From positions 103 through 64,102 of the forward strand of contig JAGWOD010000003.1 of NCBI GenBank assembly GCA_028871115.1: 64,000 nucleotides of DNA, read 5' to 3'. Each line of letters opens with the position of its first letter. Position 1 is the first letter of the stretch. Position numbers and translations under genes: made by a program. The DNA comes from Patescibacteria group bacterium (lineage in GTDB: Bacteria; Patescibacteriota; Minisyncoccia; Phycocordibacterales; SBAW01). Shown here piece by piece: positions 16,319 through 59,918 of this stretch. The notes under the pieces were generated by a model. The model was not told the DNA's origin. It worked only from the letters and a program-made list of their open reading frames with translations, and did not search any database.

Positions 16319-16826
16319 GCTCCACAGTAACGTAGGCGACAGCGGTCGTCGTTGAGTAGGTGGTTATTTGTGTCGAGGATGCATTGAAGTATTGAAATAT
16401 AGGAATATTCTCAAGCCCGTTGCGCACGTATTTTGATATGGTTGTGGTCGATTCATTTGCTACCGGATAGGTTGGAGGCGAGCCCGTGGCTACAATAGTG
16501 CCCCGCACGAAGGTGGTGCCTGAGAGGTAATACTGTACCCACTCAGGGGTGTTGCTGTCATCGACGTTGGAATAGAAGGTGAAGGAAGAAGTTGCAATTG
16601 CGGAAACAGGATAGGACCCGTCAGCGCCGTATTGTATGCCTCGTATATCTGCAACTGTCTTTTCGATGCCTTGCCGCGCACTCTCGACTGCATATGCTTC
16701 ATTGAGGGTTGTGCTGTTGGAGCGATAAAAAATGATGATGGCAGCGGTGGTCGCGATAATGGTGAGCGTCGTGATTGCGATAACGACAATAAGTTCGACC
16801 AGTGTGTATCCTCTGAGATGGTTCAT
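16233..16826 (-). CDS. Prepilin-type N-terminal cleavage/methylation domain protein (pseudopilin / minor pilin)
   Basis: MNHLRG|YTLVELIVVIAITTL is the class III signal (G-F/Y-T-L-x-E) for a PilD-processed pilin. Confidence 0.7.
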   Translation of the reverse strand: MNHLRGYTLVELIVVIAITTLTIIATTAAIIIFYRSNSTTLNEAYAVESARQGIEKTVADIRGIQYGADGSYPVSAIATSSFTFYSNVDDSNTPEWVQYYLSGTTFVRGTIVATGSPPTYPVANESTTTISKYVRNGLENIPIFQYFNASSTQITTYSTTTAVAYVTVELVVNENTSTSTGDYILRSTAALRNASQF

Positions 16827-18562: not shown

Positions 18563-18571
18563 GCGGATCCT

Positions 18572-19804: not shown

Positions 19805-19808
19805 ATTT

Positions 19809-41196: not shown

Positions 41197-43200
41197 TTGA
41201 AAAATAAAGGGATTTTGCTGCATTCGAAGCTCCTTAGTATAGTAAGTTTCATGCAGAGCCATTTAGAGGGTCTTAACGCCGCTCAAGAGGAAGCGGTGCT
41301 CCACTCCCAAGGTCCGCTCCTCGTGCTCGCAGGCGCAGGAGCGGGGAAGACCCGAGTCATAACCCACCGAATCTTGGAACTCGTGGTGAAAGGCACAGCG
41401 CCAGAGAATATTCTTGCTATTACCTTTACCAACAAGGCTGCTCGAGAGATGCGCGAGCGAGTGGAGACACTCCTCAAAAATTCAAAGAATTTCACGAGAG
41501 AAGAAGAAATGCCTTTTATTTCGACGTTTCACTCTCTGGGACTCAGAATAATAAAGGAACACTATCGTGAGTTTGGTTTCAAACGCTTCCCTGCGATTTA
41601 TGACCGAGCAGATTCACTCAAAGCATTGCGTGATGTATTGAAGCATCTGGGCACACCCATTCAAAATAAAGAGAGCCTCGAGGCCGGAGGTTCCTCGCAA
41701 GAGGCGCGTATGGTGCTTGGCATAATCTCGCGCAGCAAAGGGGACGGCATTACTCAAGAGCTCTATGAAGAAGGCGCGCGGGATGCGCGTGAGAGGATGA
41801 TCGCAACAGCGTGGAGAGGATACGAACGCGCACTCCAGAGCGAAGGAGCACTTGATTTTGACGATCTTCTCCTGCGAGCCGTACTTTTTTTGCGAGAAAA
41901 CGAAATTGCTCGGAAGCGGTATCAGAAACGCTGGCAGTATCTTCATATAGACGAGTACCAAGATACCAACCGCATCCAGAGTGCACTTGTCGCACTGCTC
42001 GTAGGCGAGGCACACAATATTTGTGCAGTCGGCGACATTGATCAAACGATCTACACCTGGCGGGGAGCAGACATCCGCAACCTTCTGAGCTTTTCGAAAC
42101 ACTATCCAGGCGCGAGAACTATACTTCTTGAGGAAAATTACCGCTCAAGTGGATCTATCCTCGAGGCTGCGAACGCTCTCATCGCAAAAAATCACATCCG
42201 GGTGGAGAAAAATCTCTTTACCAAAAAAACAGAGGGGGAGCCTCTTTCCATCTTCGGAGCGTTCGACGAGCATGACGAGGCGCACTTCGTAGTCCGCAAG
42301 ATCAATGAGCGCATAGAGCGAGGCGCCCGCCCAAAAGATTTCGCCGTTCTCTACCGAGCGAACTTCCAGTCCCGAGCGCTCGAGGAAGCGCTCCTGCAAG
42401 GAGATATTCCCTACCAGGTGCTCGGTACCCGCTTCTTCGAGCGTGCGGAGGTAAAAGATATGCTTGCGTTCCTGCGTGCAGCGCTCTACAACACCACTCC
42501 TGACATCGCGCGCATCGCAAATGTCCCTCGGCGGGGGATAGGAAAAACAACCCTTATGGCTATGCTCTCGGGAACCGAAGGAGGGTTGCGCGGTAATACA
42601 GGAGAACGGGTGGCTCTTTTCAGGACACTCTTGCACACTATCGAACGACAATCGCACCTACTTCCTCCCTCCGAACTTATTACCTTCGTGATGCGAGAGA
42701 GCGGTGTCGAGAGAATGCTGCGCGAGGATAAGCTAGAAGGTGTTGAGCGTCTCAACAATATCAAGGAGCTTATCGCGCTTGCGGGGCGCTATGACAAGGA
42801 CCCTATTCCGGAGGGTACACACGCATTCCTCGAGAATGCCGCGCTCGCAAGTGAGCAGGATGAACTCAAAGAAGAAGCAAACGCTGTGAGGCTCATGACC
42901 GTTCATGCTTCCAAGGGACTTGAATTCCCCTACGTTTTTATCACAGGCCTCGAAGAAGGACTCTTTCCCTACACCCGCGATGAAATGGATGAAGAGGAAG
43001 ATGATGAAGAAGAACGACGGCTTATGTATGTGGCACTCACACGGGCGCAAGAAAAAATATTTCTTACACACACTTCGATCCGCACTACCTTCGGTCAGCA
43101 ATCATTCAACGAACCCTCGCAATTCCTTTTGGATATTCCGGAGCGTCTCTCTTGCCTTGAGGAACCTGAGCGTCTCGGGCGCACCATTTATCTCGAGTAA
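41197..43200 (+). CDS. pcrA: ATP-dependent DNA helicase, UvrD/PcrA family
   Basis: Helicase motif I AGAGAGKTRVITHRI, the DEYQDTN motif, and C-terminal VHASKGLEFPYVF. The start may be the internal Met at 41251. Confidence 0.85.
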   Translation: MKNKGILLHSKLLSIVSFMQSHLEGLNAAQEEAVLHSQGPLLVLAGAGAGKTRVITHRILELVVKGTAPENILAITFTNKAAREMRERVETLLKNSKNFTREEEMPFISTFHSLGLRIIKEHYREFGFKRFPAIYDRADSLKALRDVLKHLGTPIQNKESLEAGGSSQEARMVLGIISRSKGDGITQELYEEGARDARERMIATAWRGYERALQSEGALDFDDLLLRAVLFLRENEIARKRYQKRWQYLHIDEYQDTNRIQSALVALLVGEAHNICAVGDIDQTIYTWRGADIRNLLSFSKHYPGARTILLEENYRSSGSILEAANALIAKNHIRVEKNLFTKKTEGEPLSIFGAFDEHDEAHFVVRKINERIERGARPKDFAVLYRANFQSRALEEALLQGDIPYQVLGTRFFERAEVKDMLAFLRAALYNTTPDIARIANVPRRGIGKTTLMAMLSGTEGGLRGNTGERVALFRTLLHTIERQSHLLPPSELITFVMRESGVERMLREDKLEGVERLNNIKELIALAGRYDKDPIPEGTHAFLENAALASEQDELKEEANAVRLMTVHASKGLEFPYVFITGLEEGLFPYTRDEMDEEEDDEEERRLMYVALTRAQEKIFLTHTSIRTTFGQQSFNEPSQFLLDIPERLSCLEEPERLGRTIYLE

Positions 43201-43202
43201 GT

Positions 43203-43982
43203 ATGCGTCCGAAGAAACGACTCGGCCAACACTTCCTCGCCCCTGCCTGGGCACGTACCGTAGCAGAGAGCGCGCAGCTTGAAGAGGACAATTATGTATT
43301 TGAGATAGGACCCGGCAGAGGAGTGCTCACGAAAGAGCTCCTGCTGCGAGGAGCGCGGACCATTGCCATCGAAAAAGACAGGGCACTGGTCGCAACTCTC
43401 AAAACTTCATTCGAAAAAGAAATAAAGGATGGAAGGCTCACACTTATTGAAGGCGACGCGCTTGAGATAGACGTGGAGAAATTGGGACTTAAAAACGGAA
43501 AGTATACAATCGTTGCTAATATTCCCTACTACATCACCGGGGCCTTGCTCGAAAAATTCCTATCACAGCCGCCTCGGCCGAAAACGCTTGTATTTCTTAT
43601 GCAAAAAGAGGTCGCCGAGCGCATTGCTAAGGCAAAAAAAGAGAGCCTCTTGTCCCTCTCCGTCAAAGCGTATGGCACTCCACACTATCTCAATACTGTC
43701 CCTCGCGGCGCGTTTAATCCCGCGCCCGAGGTGGACTCGGCAATACTGCGTATCGAGGGAATTTCGGACAAAAAATTCGATACTAGAGAGCATGAGAAGC
43801 GATTTTTCGAACTCATCCGGGCAGGATTCGCTCACAAGCGTAAATTACTCTCCGGAAACCTCAAGAATCTCCTCGGAAGAGGCGGCGAGGAGGCTCTTGC
43901 GGGTGTAGGGCTGCCCAAAAAAGTGCGGGCTGAGGATGTGCCCCTTGAGCAATGGCTTCTTCTTGCAAGGCAAGATCCCTGA
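43203..43982 (+). CDS. rsmA: 16S rRNA (adenine1518/1519-N6)-dimethyltransferase
   Basis: LGQHFL start and SAM-binding E-x-GPG motif (FEIGPGRGVLT). Confidence 0.85.
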   Translation: MRPKKRLGQHFLAPAWARTVAESAQLEEDNYVFEIGPGRGVLTKELLLRGARTIAIEKDRALVATLKTSFEKEIKDGRLTLIEGDALEIDVEKLGLKNGKYTIVANIPYYITGALLEKFLSQPPRPKTLVFLMQKEVAERIAKAKKESLLSLSVKAYGTPHYLNTVPRGAFNPAPEVDSAILRIEGISDKKFDTREHEKRFFELIRAGFAHKRKLLSGNLKNLLGRGGEEALAGVGLPKKVRAEDVPLEQWLLLARQDP

Positions 43983-44013
43983 GTCCACGAAAAGCCTTGT
44001 TATACTTTAGGAG

Positions 44014-44979
44014 ATGAACATTCGCGCCTATCTGCCCAGCGCGCGTTTTGGAACGCTTATTGGCGCTGTGGTAATAAGCGCTCTTCTTATATATGGAGCG
44101 CTAGCTATAGCCTCACCAAGGACAGGGGGACTCGAGAATACAAATGCAACAACGACTTCAAACGGAGTTTTTTCTTACTCGAGTGAAGACTGGCAACAGG
44201 CATTTGCTTCTTCAACCACCTTCCAGAGCGCCCAGGATATAGCCGACCAAGCTCAAAATCTCATCGCCTCTTCCCAGACAGGAAATCTTACTGACACCAT
44301 TGGCCGATCTCTGGTTATAGGTACAAGTGCCGCTACGGGTCAGGGGCTGAGTGGCAGTACTGATGCTGAATCTCAAATCGTTAGCAGCGCGCTTTCGGAA
44401 ATCCAGAATGAACTCTCCCAGGTGACCCTCTACACAGCAAGCGATCTAATGGTTGTGGCTGATTCTTCCTCTTCACTCCATGACTATGCCAATGCCATTG
44501 CGACGGCAATAGGAGGACACCCACAGGCATCCTATACCAACGTGATTCTTTCGGTTGGATTTGCAATCGATAACAATAACGCAACGACTCTGGCACAGCT
44601 GCCAGCAACCGCGAATGCTTACCAAGCACTGGCAAAAGAAATCATAGGAATTCCCGTACCGAACTCTCTTGCCGGCGTACAGCTCCAGATTGCTAACAAT
44701 TATTTGGAAATGTCGGGAAGCATTGGGGACATGGAAACGGTGCTTAACGACCCGATCCGCGGTCTCGCAGGGCTTCAGGAATATGATGCACTCGTGAGCC
44801 AGAGTGTGACGCTGTACACACAGATTGCTCAAACGCTGCAAAACGACGATATACTTTTTGGGAAAGGCGAGGCTGGCACTGTCTGGAGTTCTTTCCTCGC
44901 ACAGGCACAAGCTGAAGCCGCCCAAGCCGCGCAGCAATCCACAACTCAGCAGACCACCGATACCTCAAGCGGATCCTAG
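44014..44979 (+). CDS. Hypothetical N-terminally anchored extracytoplasmic protein (first gene of the T4SS-like operon)
   Basis: Single N-terminal TM (FGTLIGAVVISALLIYGALAIA) followed by a helical S/T/A/Q-rich domain. Confidence 0.45.
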   Translation: MNIRAYLPSARFGTLIGAVVISALLIYGALAIASPRTGGLENTNATTTSNGVFSYSSEDWQQAFASSTTFQSAQDIADQAQNLIASSQTGNLTDTIGRSLVIGTSAATGQGLSGSTDAESQIVSSALSEIQNELSQVTLYTASDLMVVADSSSSLHDYANAIATAIGGHPQASYTNVILSVGFAIDNNNATTLAQLPATANAYQALAKEIIGIPVPNSLAGVQLQIANNYLEMSGSIGDMETVLNDPIRGLAGLQEYDALVSQSVTLYTQIAQTLQNDDILFGKGEAGTVWSSFLAQAQAEAAQAAQQSTTQQTTDTSSGS

Positions 44980-44986
44980 AATTTCA

Positions 44987-46705
44987 ATGCAAAAATCGCC
45001 TTTTTTAAGAACTATATCTACCGGCGCAATTGTCTCCGGAGTATTGAGCATTTTGCTGTTTGTATTTGCTACCCTACCTTCAACTGCCTTTGCCCAGGCA
45101 ACTACAGCAGGAACTCAGACAACCAGCGGCCTCCAAAACTCTTCGACAGGTTCTCTCACCGGAGTAGTGGCGAGTCTTGGGGCATGTACTGTTCCTGTGC
45201 TTGCCCCACTTATCGGCGGATCATTTTCACTAGCGCTATTAGGGCAGACCGTGGGTGATACAGCCCTCCCTGTCCATGACTACGGCAATACACTCACCAA
45301 TGCCGGGACAACAATCTCAAGCAACTTAAATCTCAGTACAAGCCTCGCAAATCTTGTGCGTAGCCAGTTTCTCGACTGTGCTGCTCGCGCGCTTGCCCGA
45401 GCGGCGCTCCAGGATATTGCGGTCTCCACTATCAATTGGATAAATTCGGGCTTCAATGGAAGTCCTTCCTTCGTCCAGAATTACAATCAATTCTTCACTA
45501 ATGTTGCCGAAGATGCAGTCGGTAATTATCTGCAGAGCAGTAATCTCGCCTTTCTGTGTGATCCATTCCAAATTCAAGTCAAACTCGCGGTTGCGCAAGC
45601 GTATGCCATACAAGGCCCGCAACAATGTTCACTGAATAATTTCACCAATAGTATCCAGGGATTCATGACCGATTTCTCCCAAGGCGGGTGGCCAGCATTT
45701 ATCTCTTTCACCGATGTGCCGACTAACAATCCCTACGGCTCATTCATGTACGCAGAAGCTGGCCTCAACAGTGCGGTTGCCCAAGCACAGGGACAGAAAG
45801 TGCTCGATTTACAGTTAGGAAATGGTTTTCTTTCCGTTCAACAAAAGGAAAATTGTCATACAGTTAGCTCGACCACGCCGCCCCCCTCTTCACCAAACGA
45901 GTCGGTCGAGGAGGTGCCAGGTGGAGATGGACATTCTTTCCTTGTCTGTGATCTTGTAAATACGACTCCGGGCACTGCTATTTCTGATGCTCTCAATCAA
46001 ACGTTCAATATCAACACGGGATCGCTCATAGACGCAAAGTACTTCGATGAGATCATTAGCGCGCTGGTGTCTCAACTTATTCAAAACACCCTCTATAGCG
46101 GCCTCTCGAATCTTTCTTCAAGCGGCGGCTACGGATACAGCAGCACTTACGGTTCTGCGATCACGACAAGCGACAATAGCCTTGGCCAGGATGTGCTGAG
46201 CAATATAAATCCCTACGAAAGCTCCGCACAAAACCTTATTAGCATCGATGATCAGAACGTCTCTAATATCCAATCCTCACTCACACAAGCAGAGGGGCTC
46301 CAGCAGTGCTGGCTTAACAAAGCAAACCCGACAACAACCGGTACCTCAACCCCACTTACTACCGAACAAATGGCGCAGGCACAGGCAAACGCATCAAGTA
46401 CCCAGCCCCTTATTGACGATCTCAATCAAAAACTCTCCCTGTACGAAACTTCTGCTGGAACTGCGAGCACGAGTATTCAAGTACTTGAAGGGTACCGCAG
46501 CCAAGTTAACGGCACTACTGATCCTAATACCCTACAAACGATTCTCACTAACTTTGCGAATGGAGTTTCAAGCGGAGTCTTCATCGGAGATGCCGACGTG
46601 ACCAACGCTCAAGAGGATCAGGTCCAACTCAACTCAGAACTTTCAACCGATAATCAGACTATACAGAATGGTCTTACTCAATGCCATGCTTTCCCTTCTT
46701 CATAA
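44987..46705 (+). CDS. Hypothetical secreted protein (about 570 aa)
   Basis: Signal peptide MQKSPFLRTISTGAIVSGVLSILLFVFATLPSTAFAQA, then a Ser/Thr/Asn-rich domain. Start trimmed to the Met after the upstream stop. Confidence 0.5.
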   Translation: MQKSPFLRTISTGAIVSGVLSILLFVFATLPSTAFAQATTAGTQTTSGLQNSSTGSLTGVVASLGACTVPVLAPLIGGSFSLALLGQTVGDTALPVHDYGNTLTNAGTTISSNLNLSTSLANLVRSQFLDCAARALARAALQDIAVSTINWINSGFNGSPSFVQNYNQFFTNVAEDAVGNYLQSSNLAFLCDPFQIQVKLAVAQAYAIQGPQQCSLNNFTNSIQGFMTDFSQGGWPAFISFTDVPTNNPYGSFMYAEAGLNSAVAQAQGQKVLDLQLGNGFLSVQQKENCHTVSSTTPPPSSPNESVEEVPGGDGHSFLVCDLVNTTPGTAISDALNQTFNINTGSLIDAKYFDEIISALVSQLIQNTLYSGLSNLSSSGGYGYSSTYGSAITTSDNSLGQDVLSNINPYESSAQNLISIDDQNVSNIQSSLTQAEGLQQCWLNKANPTTTGTSTPLTTEQMAQAQANASSTQPLIDDLNQKLSLYETSAGTASTSIQVLEGYRSQVNGTTDPNTLQTILTNFANGVSSGVFIGDADVTNAQEDQVQLNSELSTDNQTIQNGLTQCHAFPSS

Positions 46706-48905
46706 ACAATTCGGCGTACTCGCAGGGTTGAGTATTGCTATCTTTGCCATATTCTTCGTCATAGCAGGGGCCTCAACCGCTCATGCTCAAGATGCTTCAC
46801 AGAGCATTGTTGGAGTTAACAATCCTGCTAACGCAGGTATAACTTCAAGTAGCTTCAATTTCACACAAAGCCCATATACTCAAACTCCAAGTAGTCTATC
46901 CCCAACGCTTAACACTAGTCAGGCTAACACTCAAGCAGGCCAACAGATCCTCAATAATTTAGGCCTCAGTCCCCAGGGCACAACTGGAAACACACAAACT
47001 ACTTCCACCTCCGATGATCTTGGCTGTTTCAACGGACAGTTTGATCTATGTCTTTCAGGTATTGTTTATTTCGTCGCGGTAGCAATACCCTCTTTTTTTG
47101 CATATGAAGCTGCGACATTTCTTGGAATTGCAGTTCAGGTGTCACTCAATAGTTCTACATATTCTATCGGTTTCATAGGCTCGGCGTGGACAGTGGTGCG
47201 CGACGTAGCCAACATGGCATTTCTTTTCATCCTTATATACATCGCGCTGGTAATCATGCTTGAGGCTGATACACATAACACGTCTCAGACATTGGTGCTC
47301 GTTATCATTATGGCTCTTATCATTAACTTCAGTTTTTTCATTACACGGCTCGTCATTGACGCCGGCAATATCTTAGCGGTCGAAGTTTATAACGCTATAC
47401 CGACGACCCAGTCGGTGCCGGGCGGAGGAAAAGACCTGACCGAAGATATCATGAGGGCGATTGGTGTACAGAACCTCTTCAGTACTTCAGCGTTCCAACA
47501 GTGGAACTCGAGCAATGGCAACTCGTTCTCTTTCTATCGCCTCATCACACTCTCGTGTTTGTATATCGCGACTGGAATTATCGTCGTTATACTTGGATTT
47601 GCATTCTTTATTGCAGCTGTGAATTTCTTAGGTCGTGTTGTTGTGTTATGGTTTGTCATAATATTTTCGCCGTTGGCGTTTGTCGCACGTGCTATCGAAC
47701 CGGTAGCTCAAGGGGCAGGGGAGGGGTTTAGACAATGGTTAGGGGCTCTTATACGTAACGCGCTCTATCCGGCGGTCTTTCTTTTCGTATTTCTGTTTCT
47801 CGATATATTCATGAAAGGCCTCGCTCTTGGTACAAATGGTAATTCGGTTGCAGCCGATATATTTCAAAATCTAAACGTTCAGAATCTTCAGAACCCAAAC
47901 AGCAATTATATAATGACACTTGTAACTCAGCTCGCGATGATGGGCATCGAGCTTGGTTTTGTGGTCATTATGGTCAAAATCGCACTCTCTGCTGCGGACA
48001 GAGTAGGACTTGAAAGTGCAGCGTTTGCACACAAGGCTGCGGAGCGGTTTCGGGGGGCCTACTTCGGTACCTACGCGAGACAGACCGCAGGACGGGCGGC
48101 GTTCTATGCTGATCGTGCAATAACAGATACGAGATTGGGTAATACACGTATGGGACAACGGGTACGTGCTCTGACAACTCAAAAATTTGCCAGCAAAGAA
48201 TTTGCAGCAGTAGGAAAAAAAGGAAAATCTTTTGAACAATATCATGAAGAAGAGCGGCATCTTAAAGAGGAGCGCGTTGCTGATGGCCGCCTCAACAAAA
48301 ATCTTCAACTACTTCAAAAAGCGGCTTCAGGAGAAGTACTTTCCACAAAAGAAAAAAGTGATCTACGCGATATGAGCATGCGCGAACTTGAGGGCGTAGA
48401 AAAACGCAGCGGAGGACATGCGCTTCTTGAGAAAGCGTCTCATCTTCTCTCGAAGAATCAAATAGAGGCTCTCAATAAAAATGATAAGTTTGACGATGCA
48501 TTCAAAGAACACATCCGACATTCCTGGAATGAAAACTCGGAAGACGCACCACTTGTGAAGGCTCAAAAAATACTCGCAGACGAATTGCGTGATGTTAATG
48601 CTAGTTTGAGGACGCTAAATGTCGCGACTCTCAACCCTAATAGCCAGCAGTACGCAGTAGGTACTGGTGCTGCCATTAACAAAGCAACTATGAAAGTAGT
48701 ATCGGATGAGGTCACCGGAGCCATATCTGCCCTACGCAGTAATATAAGGAGCGCTCCTCGAGGCACCCCGACTGTGGACATGCAGAGAGATCTGGAAATA
48801 CTTAACAATGTGCGCGACAGTATAAAACGGCATAATGACGAAATGAAGGAGATTCCGCCAGAAATTGGTGGGAGCCAAAATAGAGGCGAGTATGTAGCTT
48901 CATAA
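46686..48905 (+). CDS. VirB6/TrbL-like polytopic membrane protein with long cytoplasmic C-terminal coiled-coil region
   Basis: Signal peptide and an extracellular N-terminal domain, then at least 6 closely spaced TM helices including the FSPLAF segment, then about 300 aa of hydrophilic helical sequence. The architecture matches conjugation/T4SS channel proteins of the VirB6/TrbL type. Confidence 0.5.
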   Translation: MLSLLHKQFGVLAGLSIAIFAIFFVIAGASTAHAQDASQSIVGVNNPANAGITSSSFNFTQSPYTQTPSSLSPTLNTSQANTQAGQQILNNLGLSPQGTTGNTQTTSTSDDLGCFNGQFDLCLSGIVYFVAVAIPSFFAYEAATFLGIAVQVSLNSSTYSIGFIGSAWTVVRDVANMAFLFILIYIALVIMLEADTHNTSQTLVLVIIMALIINFSFFITRLVIDAGNILAVEVYNAIPTTQSVPGGGKDLTEDIMRAIGVQNLFSTSAFQQWNSSNGNSFSFYRLITLSCLYIATGIIVVILGFAFFIAAVNFLGRVVVLWFVIIFSPLAFVARAIEPVAQGAGEGFRQWLGALIRNALYPAVFLFVFLFLDIFMKGLALGTNGNSVAADIFQNLNVQNLQNPNSNYIMTLVTQLAMMGIELGFVVIMVKIALSAADRVGLESAAFAHKAAERFRGAYFGTYARQTAGRAAFYADRAITDTRLGNTRMGQRVRALTTQKFASKEFAAVGKKGKSFEQYHEEERHLKEERVADGRLNKNLQLLQKAASGEVLSTKEKSDLRDMSMRELEGVEKRSGGHALLEKASHLLSKNQIEALNKNDKFDDAFKEHIRHSWNENSEDAPLVKAQKILADELRDVNASLRTLNVATLNPNSQQYAVGTGAAINKATMKVVSDEVTGAISALRSNIRSAPRGTPTVDMQRDLEILNNVRDSIKRHNDEMKEIPPEIGGSQNRGEYVAS

Positions 48906-48932
48906 CTCTAGAAATTATCTGAAGAACATTTT

Positions 48933-49649
48933 ATGGAAACTGCTCGAACACCCGAAGAGATAGCAAAAAAATTCGACGCCTTACCAGCGGAAATTAAATC
49001 TCTCATATACAGTGCTGAGATGCTGAATACTGTCGAAAGAATAGGGGAGAAGTACAAGCTTCATGTAGATCAGCTTGGTCTTTTGGAATCACAAACCGCT
49101 GATGTAATGATTGGGTTCTCAAAACCTGAAAATTTTGTAAGTAATTTGTCGAGATCAGTTCAAATAGAAGTGGGGGTGGCGACTGCAATAGCTGCTGAGA
49201 TAAACGATCAGTTATTCTTAAAAATACGCGAATCTCTGAAAACAAAAGGGGTAAGTGAGGTTGTTCAAGAACCCCTTCATAATCCTCCTGCTACCTCAAT
49301 AATTCCCCCGGTATCTCAAAAGGCCGCGAGTACAGGGGTGCCGAGTCAACAAAAACCTATTTTTTCTTTGCCAGAGACTTCCATTACTGCTTCTGTAAGT
49401 AATAGCTCAACTCCCTTTTTAAAGCCCTTGCCTGATACTCCCGTTACACTTGAAGCAACGAAAGAAACTCCTCCTCTCACAAAACCAAGAAACCCAGAGA
49501 CCCCCAATCTACATCCAGTAGAAAAAGCTCTTTCACAGAGAAGTTCTGAGAAGACAGAGATCATTGATAGTACAACTCCTGCAGCAAAGGAAGGAGGATC
49601 TGAGCCCAAAAAATACGCTTTGGATCCATATCGAGAACCAATAGAATAA
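48933..49649 (+). CDS. Hypothetical protein with Pro/Thr-rich C-terminal half
   Basis: No TM segment. The N-terminal 100 aa are globular and the remainder is a low-complexity P/T/S-rich linker. Confidence 0.4.
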   Translation: METARTPEEIAKKFDALPAEIKSLIYSAEMLNTVERIGEKYKLHVDQLGLLESQTADVMIGFSKPENFVSNLSRSVQIEVGVATAIAAEINDQLFLKIRESLKTKGVSEVVQEPLHNPPATSIIPPVSQKAASTGVPSQQKPIFSLPETSITASVSNSSTPFLKPLPDTPVTLEATKETPPLTKPRNPETPNLHPVEKALSQRSSEKTEIIDSTTPAAKEGGSEPKKYALDPYREPIE

Positions 49650-49671
49650 GCGGCACGGTATACTAGAAGGA

Positions 49672-50109
49672 ATGCAGTACCAGGTTCCGCAATTTATTGA
49701 GGTTGAAGATAAAATCTTTGGGCCTCTAACATTCAAACAATTTGCATATCTCGCAGGTGCGGGAGGAGCATGCCTTATTTTCTTCACGTTCTTGCCGTGG
49801 TGGCTTGCACTCTGGCCATCGCTTCCGTTTGTAGCGCTTGGCATCGCACTCTCATTCTACAAAGTGAACGGTCGACCATTCATCAATGCTCTTGAGCATG
49901 CAATAGGTTATTTTTTTGGCAATAAACTGTATCTCTGGAAACAACGGGAGGTAAAGCCCACAGCCGAGGCAGTCGTACCTTCATCAATCTCCTCAACACT
50001 TCCAAAGATTTCAGAGAGTAAACTTAAAGATTTGGCGTGGTCACTCAACATTAAGGATCGCTCGAAACTTGGAATTACCACTGCCCAACGGACTGGGTTT
50101 GAAATATAG
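49672..50109 (+). CDS. Small two-TM protein, PrgI/VirB3-like
   Basis: 145 aa with two adjacent TM helices (FAYLAGAGGACLIFFTFLPWWLALWPSLPFVALGIALSFY). Lies immediately upstream of the ATPase-associated genes, the position and topology expected of VirB3/PrgI. Confidence 0.45.
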   Translation: MQYQVPQFIEVEDKIFGPLTFKQFAYLAGAGGACLIFFTFLPWWLALWPSLPFVALGIALSFYKVNGRPFINALEHAIGYFFGNKLYLWKQREVKPTAEAVVPSSISSTLPKISESKLKDLAWSLNIKDRSKLGITTAQRTGFEI

Positions 50110-50111
50110 GT

Positions 50112-50768
50112 ATGGCTGATCAAAAAGTAAGCGCAAAAGCGACGCAGGAGTTCGTTCCTATAAAAGAGGTGCGAGAGGGAGTAGTGGTCCTCAAAGATGG
50201 GAGTCTTCGAACAATCCTAATGGCTTCTTCAATCAATCTCGCACTGAAAAGCCAGGAAGAACAAGAAGCGGTCATCGCCCAATTCCAGAATTTTCTCAAC
50301 TCTGTTGAATTCACCGTTCAATTTTTTATAGAAAGTCGAGACCTCGACATCAGGCCCTATATTGCGCTTTTGGAAGAACGCCTTGCTGAAGAGGTTGATG
50401 ATCTTATGAAACTACAGATCAGGGAATATATTACCTTCATCCGCGACTTTGTTGAGCGGGCGAACATCATGAGCAAGAATTTCTTTATTGTAGTGCCTTA
50501 CGATCCTGCGCTCATTGAGCGAGGAGGGAGATCTGGCCCGCTTACAGCGCTTGGCCTTGGGGGAAATTCTGGGAAATCAAGTACCCTTACCGACGAGCAG
50601 TTTGAACAGTATCGCTCCCAGCTTGAACAGCGTGTTGGCATCGTTGAACAGGGTCTTATCCGTACGGGCGTACGCGTGGTACCTCTTGGAACTGAGGAAT
50701 TGATCGAGCTGTTCTACAAGCTTTTCAACCCGGGTGAACTTGAAAAGCCTGTTGCGCTAACAAAATAG
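50112..50768 (+). CDS. Hypothetical cytoplasmic protein, possibly a detached VirB4 N-terminal-like domain
   Basis: FVPIKEVREGVVVLKDGSLRTILMASSINLALKSQEEQEA resembles the start of VirB4-family N-terminal domains. Lies 3 nt after the PrgI-like gene and 35 nt before the VirB4-like ATPase. Confidence 0.4.
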   Translation: MADQKVSAKATQEFVPIKEVREGVVVLKDGSLRTILMASSINLALKSQEEQEAVIAQFQNFLNSVEFTVQFFIESRDLDIRPYIALLEERLAEEVDDLMKLQIREYITFIRDFVERANIMSKNFFIVVPYDPALIERGGRSGPLTALGLGGNSGKSSTLTDEQFEQYRSQLEQRVGIVEQGLIRTGVRVVPLGTEELIELFYKLFNPGELEKPVALTK

Positions 50769-50802
50769 TCGAGCATCGCAGAGGCGATGGTACAATCTAC
50801 AC

Positions 50803-52644
50803 ATGGCTCTTTTTGATGTGTTCAAAAAGAAGGCTCCTGCCGCTTCTGTCCCTATTTCTCCCGTCCTCCCCGAGCAGATCTATAAGCAGGGGGTACTTGA
50901 ACTGCAAGATGTCATTGCTCCTTCGGCACTTAAAGTAACGCCGCGCGAGATAAATCTTGGGGACAAGATCGCAAGAACCTTTTTCGTCATGTCCTATCCA
51001 CGGATGCTTACCGATTCTTGGTTTGCTCCTATCATCAATCTCGACCGGGTACTCGATATTTCCATCTTTGTGCACCCCATCGATAGTGCGGACATACTGA
51101 AAAAATTCCAAAAGAAGGTCGCCGAGGTCCAAAGCCAGATTGAGACACGTGAAAAGCGGGGGCTCGTGCGCGATCCCATTCTCGATACTGCGTATCGAGA
51201 CCTTGAAGATTTGCGCGATCAACTTCAACAAGCACAGGAGCGTATTTTCGACGTCGGGGTCTATATCACGATTTATGGAGCTACCGTGGAAGAACTCGAC
51301 AAAGCGGAGAGCGAAATAAAATCGATGCTTGAATCACGCCTCGTGTATGTAAAGCCCGCCCTCTTCCAACAAGAGCAGGGGTTCCGTTCGGTGCTACCGC
51401 TTGGGCATGATGAACTTGGGGTAGATTCAAAACTCAACTCCTCACCACTTTCTTCAATGTTTCCTTTCGTGTCGTTTGACCTCACCTCCGATAAAGGAAT
51501 TCTTTACGGAGTTAATCGTCATAATGCCTCGCTCGTTCTCTTCGATCGTTTTTCCCTTGAAAACTACAATTCGGTGATATTTGCAAAATCAGGATCCGGA
51601 AAATCGTATGCAACAAAACTTGAGATCTTGCGTACACTTATGTTCGATACGGAAGTTATTGTTATCGATCCTGAGCGTGAATATGAATTTCTTGCACAAG
51701 CAGTGGGTGGCCGTTACTTTAGTGTTTCACTTACTTCGGAGCATCACATCAATCCCTTCGATCTCCCGATCCCGCGGGAGGATGAAGCGCCCGCTGATGT
51801 GTTGCGCAGCAACATAGTTGCACTGGTAGGTCTTTTCCGCATCATGCTTGGGGGCCTTACTCCTGAAGAAGATTCGATCGTTGATCAGGCAATAACTGAG
51901 ACGTATGCGCTCAAAGATATTAGTACTGAGAGTGATTTTTCGCAGGTAGAACCGCCACTTTTATCTGATTTTGAACAAGTGCTTGCCGGTATGGAGGGGA
52001 GTGAATCGCTCGTGCAGCGTCTTTCTAAGTACACCAAGGGGACATGGGCAGGGTTCATCAATCAACCAACCAATGTTGATATTAACAAGCGCTTTGTCGT
52101 TTTCTCGGTGCGCGATATGGAGGACGAACTTAAACCGGTAGCAATGTACCTGGTAACGCACTATATCTGGAATGCCATTCGAAAAAATCTTAAGAAGCGC
52201 CTCCTCGTCATCGACGAGGCGTGGTGGATGATGAAATCAGAAGATACTGCAAGTTTCCTCTACGGACTTGCAAAACGCGGGCGCAAATATTATCTCGGTC
52301 TTGCAACCATTACTCAAGATGTTGATGACTTCCTCAAATCACCGTATGGACTGCCGATGATCACCAATTCATCGCTCCAGCTTCTACTCAAGCAGTCACC
52401 CTCCTCAATCGATAGTCTTCAAAAGACTTTTAATCTCTCCGACGAGGAAAAGTATCTGCTTCTCGAGAGCGATGTGGGGGAAGGAATTTTCTTCGCAGGC
52501 CTCAAGCATGTCGCGATAAAAATAATTGCCTCTTACACCGAGGACCAGATCATTACCTCCGATCCTTCACAAGTACTTGCGCTGCGTCGTGGACGACAAG
52601 AAGTATCGCAAGCCCCCGCAGCACCCGCACCTCAGCATCTATGA
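50803..52644 (+). CDS. VirB4/TrbE/CagE-family type IV secretion ATPase
   Basis: Walker A FAKSGSGKSYATK, Walker B LLVIDEAWWMM, and the C-terminal ATITQDVDDF / SSLQLLLKQ motifs typical of the VirB4 (DUF87/AAA-like) clade. 613 aa. Confidence 0.75.
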   Translation: MALFDVFKKKAPAASVPISPVLPEQIYKQGVLELQDVIAPSALKVTPREINLGDKIARTFFVMSYPRMLTDSWFAPIINLDRVLDISIFVHPIDSADILKKFQKKVAEVQSQIETREKRGLVRDPILDTAYRDLEDLRDQLQQAQERIFDVGVYITIYGATVEELDKAESEIKSMLESRLVYVKPALFQQEQGFRSVLPLGHDELGVDSKLNSSPLSSMFPFVSFDLTSDKGILYGVNRHNASLVLFDRFSLENYNSVIFAKSGSGKSYATKLEILRTLMFDTEVIVIDPEREYEFLAQAVGGRYFSVSLTSEHHINPFDLPIPREDEAPADVLRSNIVALVGLFRIMLGGLTPEEDSIVDQAITETYALKDISTESDFSQVEPPLLSDFEQVLAGMEGSESLVQRLSKYTKGTWAGFINQPTNVDINKRFVVFSVRDMEDELKPVAMYLVTHYIWNAIRKNLKKRLLVIDEAWWMMKSEDTASFLYGLAKRGRKYYLGLATITQDVDDFLKSPYGLPMITNSSLQLLLKQSPSSIDSLQKTFNLSDEEKYLLLESDVGEGIFFAGLKHVAIKIIASYTEDQIITSDPSQVLALRRGRQEVSQAPAAPAPQHL

Positions 52645-53345
52645 AATACATTGTGATCGTTTTGGTTGCACTTTCCATAGATGCCTTTCAGGCGCTTGTT
52701 GCGCTTGGACTTGCTGCAGCATTCGCGGTTTTCTCAGGAACAATTGGTGGAGCGGCGGCAGGGTGTGTGGTAGGAAGCACCGTAGGACTCTGCAAAGTTC
52801 TTGGCGCGGTCGGAGGAGTGGCGGGCTCATTTTTCAACCCAGTAGCTGCACCCTATGGGATGCAGGTTGGCGCAGTGATTGGCGCTGTCCTCGATTTTTG
52901 CATTAGTGCTGTATTTGGAACAGGGTTTATAGCTCTTCTCGTCTTTACAAGACTCCTAAAACTCGGGGATCTTCTCTCATTGCGTTTTACACCACCAATA
53001 CTCGTCAAACTACTTCCATTCATTGATATACTTCCGTTCTATACCTTTCTTGCCGTATCTTGCATATTGAAGAAAAATCAAGAGGAAGGAGGAATAGCTG
53101 GCAAAGCCCTCGCGCTTGCTGCAAGCGGTGGAATGAATATAACTGCTATTGGAGATACGGTGCGGCAAATTTCTCCCGAGATAGCGGGTAGTATGGGTAA
53201 CACCGGGCGCGGTAGTACTCCTACACCTGCGGGAGAGCCTGCAAAACAAAAAAGTAGTGCGTCTCCTCCACTCGTCGATGGAATCCGCGCAGGTTCTTCT
53301 CCCAAAGAATCATACCCAGAAGGGTTGTCTCCTTCATATGCGTAA
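52641..53345 (+). CDS. Gly/Ala-rich polytopic small membrane protein (candidate pilin-like or channel subunit)
   Basis: The ATGA start overlaps the ATPase stop. It is about 150 aa of very hydrophobic G/A/V-rich sequence with a polar S/G/P-rich tail. Confidence 0.45.
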   Translation: MKYIVIVLVALSIDAFQALVALGLAAAFAVFSGTIGGAAAGCVVGSTVGLCKVLGAVGGVAGSFFNPVAAPYGMQVGAVIGAVLDFCISAVFGTGFIALLVFTRLLKLGDLLSLRFTPPILVKLLPFIDILPFYTFLAVSCILKKNQEEGGIAGKALALAASGGMNITAIGDTVRQISPEIAGSMGNTGRGSTPTPAGEPAKQKSSASPPLVDGIRAGSSPKESYPEGLSPSYA

Positions 53346-54372
53346 TTTTTTTCTGCGTATCATAGGAATTGCTGCGCTTGTAGGGCTTCTTGGTCCTGTC
53401 GTCGCCCTAGCCCAGTCATTCCAGGCGACCCCGCAGCCCGTCCAATATCTTGTGGCACCTCAATCTCCGGGACCATACTCTCTTGTGTATATCGAGGTCG
53501 ATGGCGTTGGAGATTTCCTCGGAAATTCAACTATCACCTGGCAAGTGAATGGCAAGACGGCCCTTTCAGGCACTGGTGCGCGCCAATTCAGTTTTACGAC
53601 AGGGCCTCTCGGCATACCAATGTCAGTAACCGTGAATATAGATTCAAATGCATACGGTTTAATTACACACACATTTACCTTTGATCCTTCAACGGTGAAC
53701 TTGGTATGGGAAGCGTATACAACAGTCCCTCCTTTCTACAATGGAAAGGCTCTTGCAAGTGCGGGTTCCCAAATCAGTGTGGTTGCGTTTCCACAGGTCT
53801 TAATTGATGGAAAATCTCAATCACTAAATAACCTATCCTTTCAATGGAGCCTTAATGGTACTGCGGACCCGACACAATCCGGGCTTGGAGATGACGTTTA
53901 TACATTCAATACTAACCAACTTCATACCAGTGAGGATGTTTCGGTTGATGTAGATTCCGGCAACACTACGGTAGGACATGCTGATATCACAATACCCGAG
54001 AGCACACCCCAACTTATTTTCTATGTAGATGATCCGCTGCGCGGAATCCTCTATAACCAGGCGCTTGTATCCTCCTATTCAATGCCGAGTCAAGAAGAAA
54101 CGATTCGAGCTGAGCCGTACTTTTTTTCAACAGACAGTGCACTCAACGGATCACTGCAGTATGCATGGGTCCTCAATGGCAACACTACCACTGGCCCCAA
54201 CACACAAAATGGAGAATTGACGCTCCGACAGACCGGAAATGGGGAGGGGAGTGCAGTGCTTTCCGTCTCACTTCAGAACTCCAATACCAATCAGCTCCTT
54301 CAGGCGGCTACAGCCTCACTCACTATTCTCTTCGGGGGGGCGAGTGCATCGGGATCATTCTTCGGTCTATGA
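53338..54372 (+). CDS. Hypothetical secreted beta-rich protein
   Basis: Signal peptide MRNFFLRIIGIAALVGLLGPVVALAQS. Repeated T/S/N-rich segments suggest a beta-sandwich or Ig-like fold. Confidence 0.45.
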   Translation: MRNFFLRIIGIAALVGLLGPVVALAQSFQATPQPVQYLVAPQSPGPYSLVYIEVDGVGDFLGNSTITWQVNGKTALSGTGARQFSFTTGPLGIPMSVTVNIDSNAYGLITHTFTFDPSTVNLVWEAYTTVPPFYNGKALASAGSQISVVAFPQVLIDGKSQSLNNLSFQWSLNGTADPTQSGLGDDVYTFNTNQLHTSEDVSVDVDSGNTTVGHADITIPESTPQLIFYVDDPLRGILYNQALVSSYSMPSQEETIRAEPYFFSTDSALNGSLQYAWVLNGNTTTGPNTQNGELTLRQTGNGEGSAVLSVSLQNSNTNQLLQAATASLTILFGGASASGSFFGL

Positions 54373-55247
54373 AAATAAAAATGTGGATATATGCCATAAC
54401 AATACTTTCTGTTTTTGTGTTTTCCGTCTGTTCGATACCCTCCACCACATACGCGGCGCAGGCATCAAACCCCCTGCAGAACGGATGCACGTATACTGCA
54501 GACTCCTTAGGTGGAGGTGTATGGGTGTGTCCGGATAGATCAACACAAACCATAGCCCCGTCAGGACAGCCTCAGTCTGGTCCTACGTCTCCAACACAAA
54601 CAGGCAACGGGGCTTTTTCATCTCCGTGCGTGAATAATTGCAATATTCAATATAATCCACTCGAACCTCTCTCTTCGCCACTCGGTGGACAGATTAATTA
54701 TTCAGATTTCGCTTCATATCTGAAATATATTTTCCCAATTCTTATCTCCCTTGGAGCACTTGTTGGTGTCGTATCGCTAACGGTGGGAGGGGTCTTGTAT
54801 ATGACTTCATCGGTTCCCGGGGTAAAAAGCGAAGCGTTGGGACGTGCACAAGCTTCGATTTGGGGGTTACTATTGCTTATTGCCTCAGTACTTATTCTCC
54901 AAACAATAAATCCGAACCTTATCAGTTTCAATCTTAGCGATTTGAATACGCTCACACAGCAGGCCGGTTCTTCCTCAGGATCCGCCAGCACCCAACAAAC
55001 AAATACAAATTCCACATGCACGGTGGGCCAGACCGGGTGTTCCTCACTGCCATCATCCAATGGAGGATCTGCGACAGAATTACATATCACTGTAACCATT
55101 CCTCAAACGGAAACTCTTGACTCGCAAAATCCTGACACTGCAACTGTGGCTAAGCAATACGCCCAAGATTGCCAGCAAGAAGGCAAAACCTTTAGCAGCG
55201 AAGCTGCTTCCGACGGAAGTTTCAATTTTATTCTGCATTGTAACTAA
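54369..55247 (+). CDS. Hypothetical secreted protein with Cys-containing N-domain and two central TM helices
   Basis: Start is ATGA-coupled to the upstream gene. Signal peptide, then a Cys-containing domain, then a hairpin of two TM helices (YIFPILISLGALVGVVSLTVGGVLY / IWGLLLLIASVLILQTI). Confidence 0.45.
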   Translation: MKIKMWIYAITILSVFVFSVCSIPSTTYAAQASNPLQNGCTYTADSLGGGVWVCPDRSTQTIAPSGQPQSGPTSPTQTGNGAFSSPCVNNCNIQYNPLEPLSSPLGGQINYSDFASYLKYIFPILISLGALVGVVSLTVGGVLYMTSSVPGVKSEALGRAQASIWGLLLLIASVLILQTINPNLISFNLSDLNTLTQQAGSSSGSASTQQTNTNSTCTVGQTGCSSLPSSNGGSATELHITVTIPQTETLDSQNPDTATVAKQYAQDCQQEGKTFSSEAASDGSFNFILHCN

Positions 55248-55263
55248 CCTGCGCTAACTTGAT

Positions 55264-56493
55264 ATGAATCTCAGTTGGAAAAAAATTGCAGTTGGAGGAG
55301 GAATATTAATACTTATCCTTATTCTCATCCTCATCTTTCTTTTACGAGGAAGTGGCGGCCCAAGTACTTCCTCAAGCAATGGATCTTTTGGATCAAATCC
55401 AGGCACAACAGGCGTTTCGGTAGGTCAAAGCGGAGGAGGAGCTTCGTCACTGCCTTCCTCTTCCTCGGGAATATCACCTACGCAAAAAGTATTCGAAATT
55501 GCCGTGGGCCCTGTTGTAGGGGCAGAACTTACTGAAGCCGGGGAGCCTACAACAACCGTGGCGCGCTACATCACCTCGCAGGATGGTCATATCCTTCAGC
55601 TAGAACTTAATACCCCCGGCGCCGTACCGCAGATATTATCCAACACAACTATCCCAGGCATAGAAGAAGCATACTGGAGTGACGGAGGATCGGGAGTCAT
55701 CGTTCAGTATCTTGATCAGGGAACTATGAAAAGCGCTCACTTGCTTCTGCCGGGAGCCGCGAGCACCAGCCCCACGAGCATAAATTTCCTTCCAGACAAT
55801 ATATTGGCGCTTGCAGTATCTCCTAATGGATCTTCTGTCGTGTATCTATTGCGCAGTGCTACAGGAGCAAGCGGGTATCTCTCGCAAACAAACGGATCAA
55901 ACATCAAAGAACTTTTTTCCCTGCCGCTCTCCCAACTTATCCTCTCATGGCCTTCCCCAGGTACAATCCTTGCCTACAGCAAAGCGGCTGCAGGAGTAGC
56001 GGGCATTGCTTTCTCAATCAATGCAAAAACGGGAAGTGTAGCCCCAGTGCTCTATGGTCTTGGGCTCACGGTCTCTGGAAACCCTGATTTTTCCTATCTT
56101 CTTTACCGCACCGATACGGGCTCGGCAGCGACCCTCTACACAGAATCGACTATCTCCGGTGGAAGCTCTCTGTTCCCGACACTCTCAACGCTTGAGACCC
56201 CTTTCCCAGAAGAATGTGTTTGGGGTAGCTCTAACAATGTCTATTGCGCGGCACCTGCAGAGGCAACGCCCTATGACTATCTCGATCTCTGGCATCGAAG
56301 TGAAGCGAGCGTCCCCGATTCACTAGTTCTGCTTAACATCGCTTCAAGCACCGAAGCGCTTGTCGCAACACCTGGAACCTCCGATGGAGGAGAAACTGCC
56401 GATATGACCAAGTTTTCGCTCTCTCCGGACGGGCAATATCTCTCCTTCATCTCCAAGGATGACGAAGCGCTCTGGGGAGTGAGGCTTCAGTAA
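55264..56493 (+). CDS. Hypothetical N-terminally anchored periplasmic/extracellular protein
   Basis: N-terminal TM (ILILILILIFLL), a Gly/Ser linker, then a repetitive beta-rich domain. Last gene of the plus-strand operon. Confidence 0.45.
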   Translation: MNLSWKKIAVGGGILILILILILIFLLRGSGGPSTSSSNGSFGSNPGTTGVSVGQSGGGASSLPSSSSGISPTQKVFEIAVGPVVGAELTEAGEPTTTVARYITSQDGHILQLELNTPGAVPQILSNTTIPGIEEAYWSDGGSGVIVQYLDQGTMKSAHLLLPGAASTSPTSINFLPDNILALAVSPNGSSVVYLLRSATGASGYLSQTNGSNIKELFSLPLSQLILSWPSPGTILAYSKAAAGVAGIAFSINAKTGSVAPVLYGLGLTVSGNPDFSYLLYRTDTGSAATLYTESTISGGSSLFPTLSTLETPFPEECVWGSSNNVYCAAPAEATPYDYLDLWHRSEASVPDSLVLLNIASSTEALVATPGTSDGGETADMTKFSLSPDGQYLSFISKDDEALWGVRLQ

Positions 56494-56494
56494 T

Positions 56495-56965
56495 TTAGAG
56501 GTGGGGTTGCGAAGAATTCTCTTTGAACTTGAGAACAATGTGGCGCATCTTGCCCTCACCCGCCGATTCTGTGCTGATTTCCGGATCTTCAGCGAAGAGT
56601 TCGTGAATCACAAGACGCTCATAGGAGCTCATCGGGCTTAATTCCACATCATGTTTAAAAAGACGGGCGCGCTGCGCAAGCAGTCGTGCGTTTTCTCGCA
56701 AAATCTGAAGCTTGACCTCGTGGTAACCGTTAACATCGATGAGAAAGTTGGCTGCTTCTTCGCTATACTTCATCTCCGCGAGGCGGCGCGCGATGGTATT
56801 AAGCGATTGGAGGTGCTCCCCGTGCGTACCAATGAGAAGCTTTGAATCGGGGGAGGTAACAGAAACGACGATGCGCGGCGGATTTGAGACAGAAATATTC
56901 TCTACCGTAACGCCAAGCGCCGAAAGAAGATCTAAGACCAGCTGTTTGAGCGCTGAGGAGTCCAT
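56495..56965 (-). CDS. jag: Jag/KhpB-like RNA-binding protein (KH plus R3H)
   Basis: Lies downstream of yidC. KH-like LIGTHGEHLQSLNTIARRLAEM, and an R3H-like LSPMSSYERLVIHELFAEDPEISTESAGEGKMRHIVL. Confidence 0.7.
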   Translation of the reverse strand: MDSSALKQLVLDLLSALGVTVENISVSNPPRIVVSVTSPDSKLLIGTHGEHLQSLNTIARRLAEMKYSEEAANFLIDVNGYHEVKLQILRENARLLAQRARLFKHDVELSPMSSYERLVIHELFAEDPEISTESAGEGKMRHIVLKFKENSSQPHL

Positions 56966-58089: not shown

Positions 58090-58224
58090 TTATACCGAAA
58101 GACGGGCGCGCCCCTTGCGACGACGGCGAGCGAGCGTGCGGCGTCCGCCAGGGCGTTGCATGCGTCCAAGAAATCCGTGGGTTCGCGCGCGCTTGCGTTT
58201 TTTAGGCTGATACGTTCGTTTCAT
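58090..58224 (-). CDS. rpmH: 50S ribosomal protein L34
   Basis: Not in the ORF track because it is under 60 aa. The reverse complement of 58090..58224 translates [44 protein letters not shown], the L34 consensus. Confidence 0.85.
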
Positions 58225-58364
58225 GTGGGCTCTACTCTACTGTGAAACGAACCTCGTTGCAACCGCTCTGCATTATCCCCATTATATCCACAGATTAATA
58301 CCATTCGAAACAAAAACAGGGGAGTTCCCATAAGAAGCGCTTACGCCTATAATCTCCCTTACAT

Positions 58365-59699: not shown

Positions 59700-59918
59700 T
59701 GTGGAGAAGCCTGTGGAAAAGTTGTGTATTTATAGAGGAGAGCCTGTGGAGAAAGTGGGGAATATAAGAACAACTTTAAAAAAACTTGCTGGAACAATCG
59801 CCACCGAAGGATAACTACAAAAAACCTGTACACAAAATAACCAATATGAAGAAGGAGTATTCAATGATTTCCCCAATCCACAGCGCCTTCTTGTTATTAT
59901 GTTCTTATTAAATAATTC
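59700..59918. promoter_or_regulatory. Probable oriC core: DnaA-box cluster plus AT-rich unwinding region between dnaA and dnaN
   Basis: Three direct copies of TGTGGA(G/A)AA at 59700, 59712 and 59745 (complement TTYTCCACA, one mismatch from TTATCCACA), followed by about 150 bp of AT-rich sequence. Two more boxes lie upstream of dnaA at 58273 and 58285. Confidence 0.5.

Follow-up and report, generated by a model that had tools for sequence, protein, structure and literature searches.

A probable Patescibacteria-type type IV secretion system encoded beside the likely replication origin of a Paceibacteria genome

Layout of the locus and its conserved core

We analyzed a stretch of 64,000 nucleotides (nt) of DNA from a Patescibacteria group bacterium (GenBank assembly GCA_028871115.1, contig JAGWOD010000003.1, positions 103 to 64,102), referred to here as the window, which carries a run of eleven genes for a type IV secretion system (T4SS). 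The eleven open reading frames (ORFs), designated g1 to g11, are all on the plus strand and fill positions 44014-56493. ATGA overlaps join g7 to g8 (at 52641) and g9 to g10 (at 54369), g8 and g9 overlap by 8 nt, and g2 and g3 overlap by 38 nt with the ATG at 46668. The six remaining junctions are gaps of 7, 27, 22, 2, 34, and 16 nt. A first-pass annotation, made from the sequence alone, had described eleven co-directional ORFs with the two ATGA overlaps, and this held. For the other gaps, it gave 3 to 35 nt; those measured are 2 to 34 nt, and two further junctions are overlaps. Its protein inventory accounted for only ten of the eleven genes, omitting g6.

The ATPase of the system is g7 (50803-52644, plus strand), a VirB4 protein of 613 amino acids with Walker A and Walker B motifs. 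It scored 391 bits against the NCBIfam model NF045971 for the CD1110 family of VirB4 (cutoff, 325 bits), covering model positions 184-733 of 752, and also matched the Pfam families P-loop_TraG, AAA_10, and DUF87. By BLASTP it aligned to residues 228-772 of PrgJ from plasmid pCF10 with 27% identity (E value of 4e-45). The three motifs on which a VirB4 assignment had first been proposed, FAKSGSGKSY, LLVIDEAWW, and ATITQDVDDF, were all found in g7, and the model and PrgJ matches place that assignment on firmer ground. There were at least 8,000 homologues of g7; of the best 120, all those bearing a name came from Patescibacteria or Paceibacterota, with 86 to 100% identity. Judged by these nearest relatives, g7 is of the Patescibacteria type of VirB4.

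The g7 match starts at PrgJ residue 228, and g7 thus lacks the canonical N-terminal domain of about 200 residues. The domain is supplied by g6 (50112-50768, plus strand), a separate TrsD-like polypeptide of 218 amino acids. The g6 protein matched NCBIfam TrsD/TraD (E value of 4.7e-9) and aligned to N-terminal positions of three VirB4 models, including positions 2-116 of CD1110 and 100-233 of Mbov_0397. For comparison with relatives, 80 loci were retrieved by a genome scan with g7. The g7 protein was 75 to 91% identical across these loci, and a separate g6 ORF of 209 to 225 amino acids was present in 76 of the 80, indicating that the split of VirB4 into TrsD and an ATPase is genuine and does not reflect a frameshift.

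Two further membrane components could be assigned. The g5 protein (49672-50109, plus strand; 145 amino acids) belongs to the PrgI/VirB3 family of two-transmembrane proteins. It scored 37.9 bits against PF12666, for which the gathering score is 27, has a hydrophobic hairpin at residues 24-62 by hydropathy, and has counterparts, about 50% identical, in 76 of the 80 loci. The g3 protein (46668-48905, plus strand; 745 amino acids) is polytopic, with an N-terminal signal or anchor, a Ser/Thr-rich linker, at least six transmembrane helices (residues ~125-465), and a charged C-terminal tail of about 280 amino acids. The window g3 itself gave no Pfam match; TrbL/VirB6 (PF04610) was matched by 6 of 36 orthologues and, among the 120 homologues listed, by 10. 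An AlphaFold2 model of g3 residues 1-500 had a predicted local distance difference test score (pLDDT) of 78 and a predicted template modeling score of 0.71. Its best Foldseek matches in the PDB were the TrwI/VirB6 chains of R388, and the DotA fold was matched as well. A PDB profile search with g3 returned only coiled-coil noise from the tail. By its predicted fold, then, g3 is VirB6-like, and with its long tail it is an "extended VirB6." The earlier assignments of these two proteins, to PrgI/VirB3 and to VirB6/TrbL, both agree with the family and fold matches.

The last recognizable component, g10 (54369-55247, plus strand; 292 amino acids), had at first been listed only as a generic secreted protein. 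It consists of a signal peptide, a variable N-terminal region, a pilin core with two transmembrane segments (residues ~114-180), and a variable C-terminal extension that contains cysteine. PF18895, T4SS_pilin, was matched by 32 of 36 aligned orthologues (best E value of 2.4e-10) and TrbC/VirB2 by 5 of the 36. On these orthologue matches, g10 is reclassified as a VirB2-like pilin.

Accessory and envelope proteins

The other six proteins accompany the core in a fixed order. The g8 protein (52641-53345, plus strand) is a Gly/Ala-rich polytopic membrane protein of 234 amino acids with about four transmembrane segments by hydropathy. It had no Pfam match and represents a positionally conserved family with a conserved Asp in the first transmembrane segment and an "IP..LP.WT" motif. 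A relationship to PrgF, PrgG, or pilins was considered and discarded, as hhalign showed none. The adjoining g9 (53338-54372, plus strand; 344 amino acids) is N-anchored or secreted and has three tandem immunoglobulin (Ig)-like repeats of about 100 amino acids each, marked by three repeated W/G motifs. In a PDB profile search, it matched the Ig domains of Hoc, a phage protein (E value of 2.6e-4). When orthologues of g2, g9, and g11 were pooled and scanned against Pfam, BiPBP_C, Ig_3, and Big_7 matches arose, which were attributed to g9 because of this fold evidence. The g9 gene was present in 76 of the 80 loci, and a full-library search yielded 2,870 cluster representatives at an E value of 1e-3 or lower. 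Many of its closest relatives are proteins of 520 to 590 amino acids, including P0362, P0363, P0366, P0367, and P0369-P0373, that consist of a g8-like N-terminal half and a g9-like C-terminal half; the N-terminal halves of P0362 and P0367 match g8 with E values of 1e-16 and 1e-15. In the window, g8 and g9 are separate and lie in different frames. The fusions point to g8 and g9 forming one unit, in which three Ig-like domains are joined to a polytopic membrane anchor.

The g11 protein (55264-56493, plus strand; 409 amino acids) has a transmembrane segment at residues 8-26 and reads as an N-anchored, TolB-like beta-propeller. Its PDB profile matches were to TolB only (best E value of 4e-4), PD40 repeats in four members of the pooled scan were attributed to it, and it was found in 64 of the 80 loci.

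A protein of 572 amino acids, g2 (44987-46705, plus strand, ATG start), is secreted and has no assigned function. It has a signal peptide, a Cys-rich middle region that is strongly conserved, and, at the C terminus, a bundle of long helices. All of its 196 homologues are unnamed, PG_binding_1 was matched by 5 of the 120 listed, and g2 is possibly associated with the wall. In its AlphaFold2 model, pLDDT exceeded 90 only at residues 284-330 and 396-567 and was low in the conserved core. Foldseek returned only generic helical bundles from the PDB, and a PDB profile search gave nothing beyond a weak match to Hbl-L1 (E value of 0.073). Identities as a ClyA/Hbl-like or a VirB5-like protein were dropped for lack of support.

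The g1 protein (44014-44979, plus strand; 321 amino acids) is fast-evolving and, by hydropathy, extracytoplasmic with one N-terminal transmembrane segment (residues 15-33). It had no match in Pfam, NCBIfam, or PDB profile searches, and tblastn recovered an orthologue in 18 of the 80 loci at about 25% identity. In an hhalign comparison with PrgL, the transmembrane segment alone aligned. The g4 protein (48933-49649, plus strand; 238 amino acids) has no transmembrane segment and is predicted to be cytoplasmic. It comprises a conserved N-terminal domain of about 100 amino acids, a Pro/Thr-rich linker, and a conserved C-terminal DPYREP motif; an orthologue was found in 48 of the 80 loci, and Pfam, NCBIfam, and PDB searches gave no match. 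The DPYREP motif stands at the C termini of g4 orthologues, and a small "..AA/..AV" tail closes many of the g8 orthologues. The two sequences resemble short signals for docking or degradation.

Chromosomal setting, conservation, and transcription

The cluster is embedded among housekeeping genes, and the Pfam matches agree with the neighbors named in the first-pass annotation. On the 5' side are PcrA/UvrD (41197-43200) and RsmA (43203-43982), and on the 3' side are Jag (R3H/KH), YidC, and RnpA on the minus strand, rpmH (58090-58224, minus strand), and then DnaA (58365-59699) and DnaN. The convergent stop codons of g11 (plus strand) and jag (minus strand) are 1 nt apart (56493-56497), leaving no space for a terminator between the two genes. 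DnaA-box-like sites were located at 58273, 58284, 59700, 59712, and 59745, in the rpmH-dnaA and dnaA-dnaN spacers, and the window as a whole has 21 DnaA-box matches compared with 10.7 expected. The cumulative skew of guanine plus cytosine (GC) reaches its minimum near 56 to 57 kb. The dnaA gene, with box clusters in both flanking spacers, thus marks a likely oriC region at 58225-59918, and the box clusters at 58273/58284 and 59700-59753 put the end of the gene cluster 1.7 to 3.3 kb from it. Genes g1 to g11 are transcribed towards this probable origin, with the same orientation relative to dnaA in all mapped loci. This orientation suggests that the leftward replication fork would meet the cluster head-on.

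The 80 loci come from Adlerbacteria, Nomurabacteria, Campbellbacteria, Kaiserbacteria, Taylorbacteria, Zambryskibacteria, and other Paceibacteria, and the cluster genes recur across them wherever the contig extends. The order pcrA-rsmA-g1 to g11-jag-yidC-rnpA-dnaA-dnaN was collinear in all 16 fully mapped loci, so the synteny beside rsmA and dnaA that the first-pass annotation had proposed looking for in relatives is present. Sequence conservation was uneven. Median identity to the window proteins was 59% for TrsD, 50% for PrgI, and 78% for VirB4, the last figure being biased upward somewhat because the loci had been selected by VirB4 similarity. The corresponding values were 54% for DnaA, 49% for PcrA, and 39% for DnaN, and only 25 to 36% for the extracytoplasmic proteins of the cluster. 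The cytoplasmic parts are conserved and the surface parts are fast-evolving, and VirB4 stands above DnaA in the same genome pairs. Many of the related records (L006, L007, L009, L016, and others) are titled "uncultured Candidatus Saccharibacteria bacterium." They have a Paceibacteria-type locus with the same gene order and a VirB4 that is 75 to 88% identical, and the titles look generic or mistaken.

The cluster had been described as a single operon. Conserved boxes at two of the starts suggest otherwise. A TAnnnT box (TATACT/TATAAT-like) ends 6 to 8 nt ahead of the start codon, for g1 in 13 of 18 loci and for g5 in 58 of 73 loci, and in the window it reads TATACT, 8 nt before the g1 ATG and 7 nt before the g5 ATG (43994-44013 and 49652-49671). 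Such a box also precedes about 25 to 37% of g6, g7, and g11 starts. A scan for consensus promoters and terminators over 43 to 58.5 kb found sites no more frequent than in shuffled sequence. The boxes suggest at least two near-leaderless transcription units, one from an internal promoter, in place of a single eleven-gene operon.

The same annotation had held that the locus is fixed in the chromosome and is not an integrated conjugative element, citing native composition and the lack of a relaxase, VirD4, or integrase. Most of this survived. No relaxase or coupling protein was found among the approximately 50 window ORFs scanned with Pfam and NCBIfam, and tblastn with PcfC and PcfG of pCF10 found no match in 1.47 Mb comprising the window and the 80 loci. 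A search for direct repeats that could be attachment sites found none flanking the cluster; the only repeats were of 14 to 23 nt, at chance level and inside coding sequences. The GC content of the cluster is slightly lower than that of the rest of the window (0.475 versus 0.506), so that composition is not strictly native, but this small dip is outweighed by the synteny. Instead of a patchy distribution, the locus was found in all 80 related genomes, these having been retrieved through VirB4. The claim that the window holds no integrase was incorrect. A tyrosine recombinase of 312 amino acids (Phage_integrase plus SAM_1) is encoded at 33873-34811 on the minus strand, parted from the cluster by 9 kb of housekeeping genes. 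Because the XerD, XerC, and XerA models match it from end to end, a role as the integrase of a conjugative element was ruled out, and the protein is probably a chromosome-dimer resolvase. The region around it, at 29 to 35 kb, has a GC content of 0.43 to 0.46 and also contains four tRNA genes.

Elsewhere in the window there is a type IV pilus cluster on the minus strand (16823-21551). It encodes PilB (T2SSE; 19809-21551), PilC (T2SSF; 18572-19804), and a protein of 579 amino acids with an N-terminal methylation motif and CarboxypepD_reg/SpaA-like domains (16823-18562), all on the minus strand. Two unassigned ORFs follow, and the GC skew of the region is unusually strong. An M23 peptidase with LysM repeats is encoded at 39803-40900 on the minus strand, 3 kb upstream of g1 to g11 and opposite to them in orientation; M23 and LysM domains occur on VirB1-like proteins of Patescibacteria (PMC12102498).

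Proposed function and comparison with known systems

In our reading, to which we give a probability of about 85%, the locus is a vertically inherited chromosomal T4SS of the Patescibacteria, in its Paceibacteria arrangement, derived from monoderm conjugation machinery of the MPF-FATA type. Its membrane and energizing core is VirB4 (g6 plus g7), PrgI/VirB3 (g5), and the extended VirB6 (g3), together with the VirB2-like pilin g10. Lineage-specific envelope proteins accompany this core, namely, g8-g9, g11, g2, and the N-anchored g1, along with g4, which is predicted to be cytoplasmic. In operation, hexamers of g7 with the detached N-terminal domain g6 would dock on g5 and g3, and VirB4 would extract the pilin g10 from the membrane for polymerization on the VirB6 platform. 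The polymerized pilin would form a pilus or a conduit through the wall, and the fast-evolving extracytoplasmic proteins (g1, g2, g8-g9, and g11) might serve as a scaffold for crossing the wall and touch the host cell. The lack of a nearby relaxase or coupling protein makes conjugation improbable. By analogy with Southlakia, the machine more likely supports a life that depends on a host, whether by contact, by exporting proteins, or by taking up host material.

Several observations weigh against this reading. Another part of the genome, beyond the window and loci searched, could encode a type IV coupling protein (T4CP), and distant T4CP homologues have been reported for many Patescibacteria (PMC12102498). 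Functional data on a homologous T4SS come from Southlakia only. The window g10 itself scores an E value of 0.028, below the Pfam threshold, so that its pilin assignment rests on orthologues. Sequence searches gave no match for VirB8-like (PrgL/PrgD) or VirB1-like (PrgK) parts, which are usually recognizable by fold only, and g1, g2, g4, and g8 matched no known family in sequence and profile searches. The choice of loci by VirB4 similarity also means that the identity gap of VirB4 over DnaA is somewhat overstated.

A bolder version of the same reading can be offered tentatively, and we consider it rather doubtful. Here g8-g9, g11, g2, g1, and g4 would be a Paceibacteria-specific extracellular module that replaces VirB8, VirB1, and adhesins, and the module, the core, and a borrowed VirB2 pilus would together make an indispensable, host-piercing conduit. 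If true, such a conduit would account for the tighter conservation of VirB4 relative to DnaA.

Of the competing explanations, the one that fares best, although we think it unlikely, is a purely adhesive pilus that attaches to the host and through which nothing passes. The VirB2-like pilin fits this, as do the Ig-like and propeller surface proteins, which could be adhesins, and so does the absence from the window and the 80 loci of a coupling protein, normally the recruiter of substrates. However, some T4SSs without a coupling protein (Ptl and Brucella VirB) still secrete (PMC12102498), and the window already encodes a separate type IV pilus system with PilB, PilC, and a large pilin, type IV pili being the known adhesion device in Saccharibacteria (PMC12857230). 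A DNA-uptake machine like ComB of Helicobacter pylori or archaeal Ced, importing host DNA for nucleotides or genes, is more improbable again. Patescibacteria are unable to make nucleotides (PMC10633639), the T4SS-derived importers ComB and Ced likewise lack a relaxase, and in class ABY1 the T4SS adjoins comF, recG, and radA (PMC12102498). The ATPase also resembles CedB weakly, at the level of VirB4 (E value of 7.6e-10), but this match is limited to the ATPase core, and the ORF scans of the window showed no competence genes adjoining g1 to g11. Furthermore, in Southlakia the deletion of comEC ends competence and not viability, whereas the T4SS is essential (PMC12857230). Finally, an integrated conjugative element, or its decayed remnant, lying near the origin by chance would account for the MPF-FATA ancestry of VirB4, PrgI, and TrsD, the roughly 3-point GC deficit, and a recombinase in the window, but it is scarcely credible and was rejected on the synteny. 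In the 16 mapped loci the cluster keeps one place and one gene order from rsmA to jag, and the genes recur in 80 genomes of several Paceibacteria orders, with a VirB4 more conserved than DnaA, no relaxase or T4CP in the window and loci searched, no flanking repeats, and an XerC/D-like recombinase that is 9 kb away.

The preferred reading, that of a vertically inherited Patescibacteria T4SS, agrees closely with recent literature. Quinonero-Coronel et al. (2025) described a monophyletic clade of Patescibacteria VirB4 proteins nested in MPF-FATA, with TrsD, PrgI, VirB6, and VirB2-like pilins near virB4, with relaxases almost absent, and, in Paceibacteria, with dnaA, dnaN, ksgA, rnpA, and rpmH as T4SS neighbors (PMC12102498). 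The window shares this Patescibacteria-type VirB4, the four accompanying components, the lack of a nearby relaxase or T4CP, and the neighbors (ksgA being rsmA). We see no essential difference from that clade, in which the accessory genes were left unnamed. A 2025 review places the Patescibacteria T4SSs in the T4SS superfamily as its most recent additions (PMC12857230). The only homologue with functional data is that of Southlakia epibionticum ML1, which cannot grow epibiotically without the cluster SEML1_0006-0019 (Wang et al. 2023, PMC10633639). It is likewise chromosomal and origin-proximal, with Gram-positive-like subunits and pilins and no recognizable coupling protein or relaxase. From its published description, the Southlakia system, which belongs to the Saccharimonadia, differs in having an array of six divergent pilins and, downstream of virB4, genes for peptidase and lysozyme, whereas g1 to g11 include a single pilin and no hydrolase.

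Among conjugation systems, the closest parallels are with the MPF-FATA plasmids. In pCF10, the VirB6-like gene also precedes those for PrgI and VirB4, in the order prgH-prgI-prgJ, and TrsD is common to the window and the Trs system of pGO1. In contrast to pCF10, neither PcfC and PcfG nor PrgK, PrgL/PrgD, or PrgB could be detected by tblastn in the window and the 80 loci. The window system also has a pilin, which pCF10 and pGO1 lack, is chromosomal and not mobile, and has a split VirB4 in place of the single full-length protein of canonical MPF-FATA systems. The resemblance to diderm systems is confined to the membrane core of g3, whose fold matches TrwI/VirB6 of R388 VirB/Trw and DotA of Dot/Icm, and to the VirB2/TrbC type of the pilin. 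VirB7, VirB9, VirB10, VirB5, VirB11, and VirD4 are all missing from the window, and the envelope is monoderm.

The Patescibacteria are ultra-small bacteria that account for much of bacterial diversity and rely on hosts. Their T4SS occurs almost throughout the phylum and is located next to the origin of replication, and the single species tested cannot do without it. It is therefore a prime candidate for the host-interaction machine, the conclusion that the first-pass annotation had already reached. That conclusion is correct but not new, the type of system having been published between 2023 and 2025. The locus introduces no new principle and offers a clean, fully syntenic Paceibacteria example. 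What it adds to the literature is small and still provisional: the fusion of g8 with g9, the Ig-like and TolB-like folds, the Cys-rich and helical g2, fold support for VirB6, the contrast in conservation between core and surface, and candidate internal promoters. Compared with the published systems, in which such partners stayed unnamed, the conserved g1, g2, g4, g8-g9, and g11 are now concrete targets for structural and genetic work.

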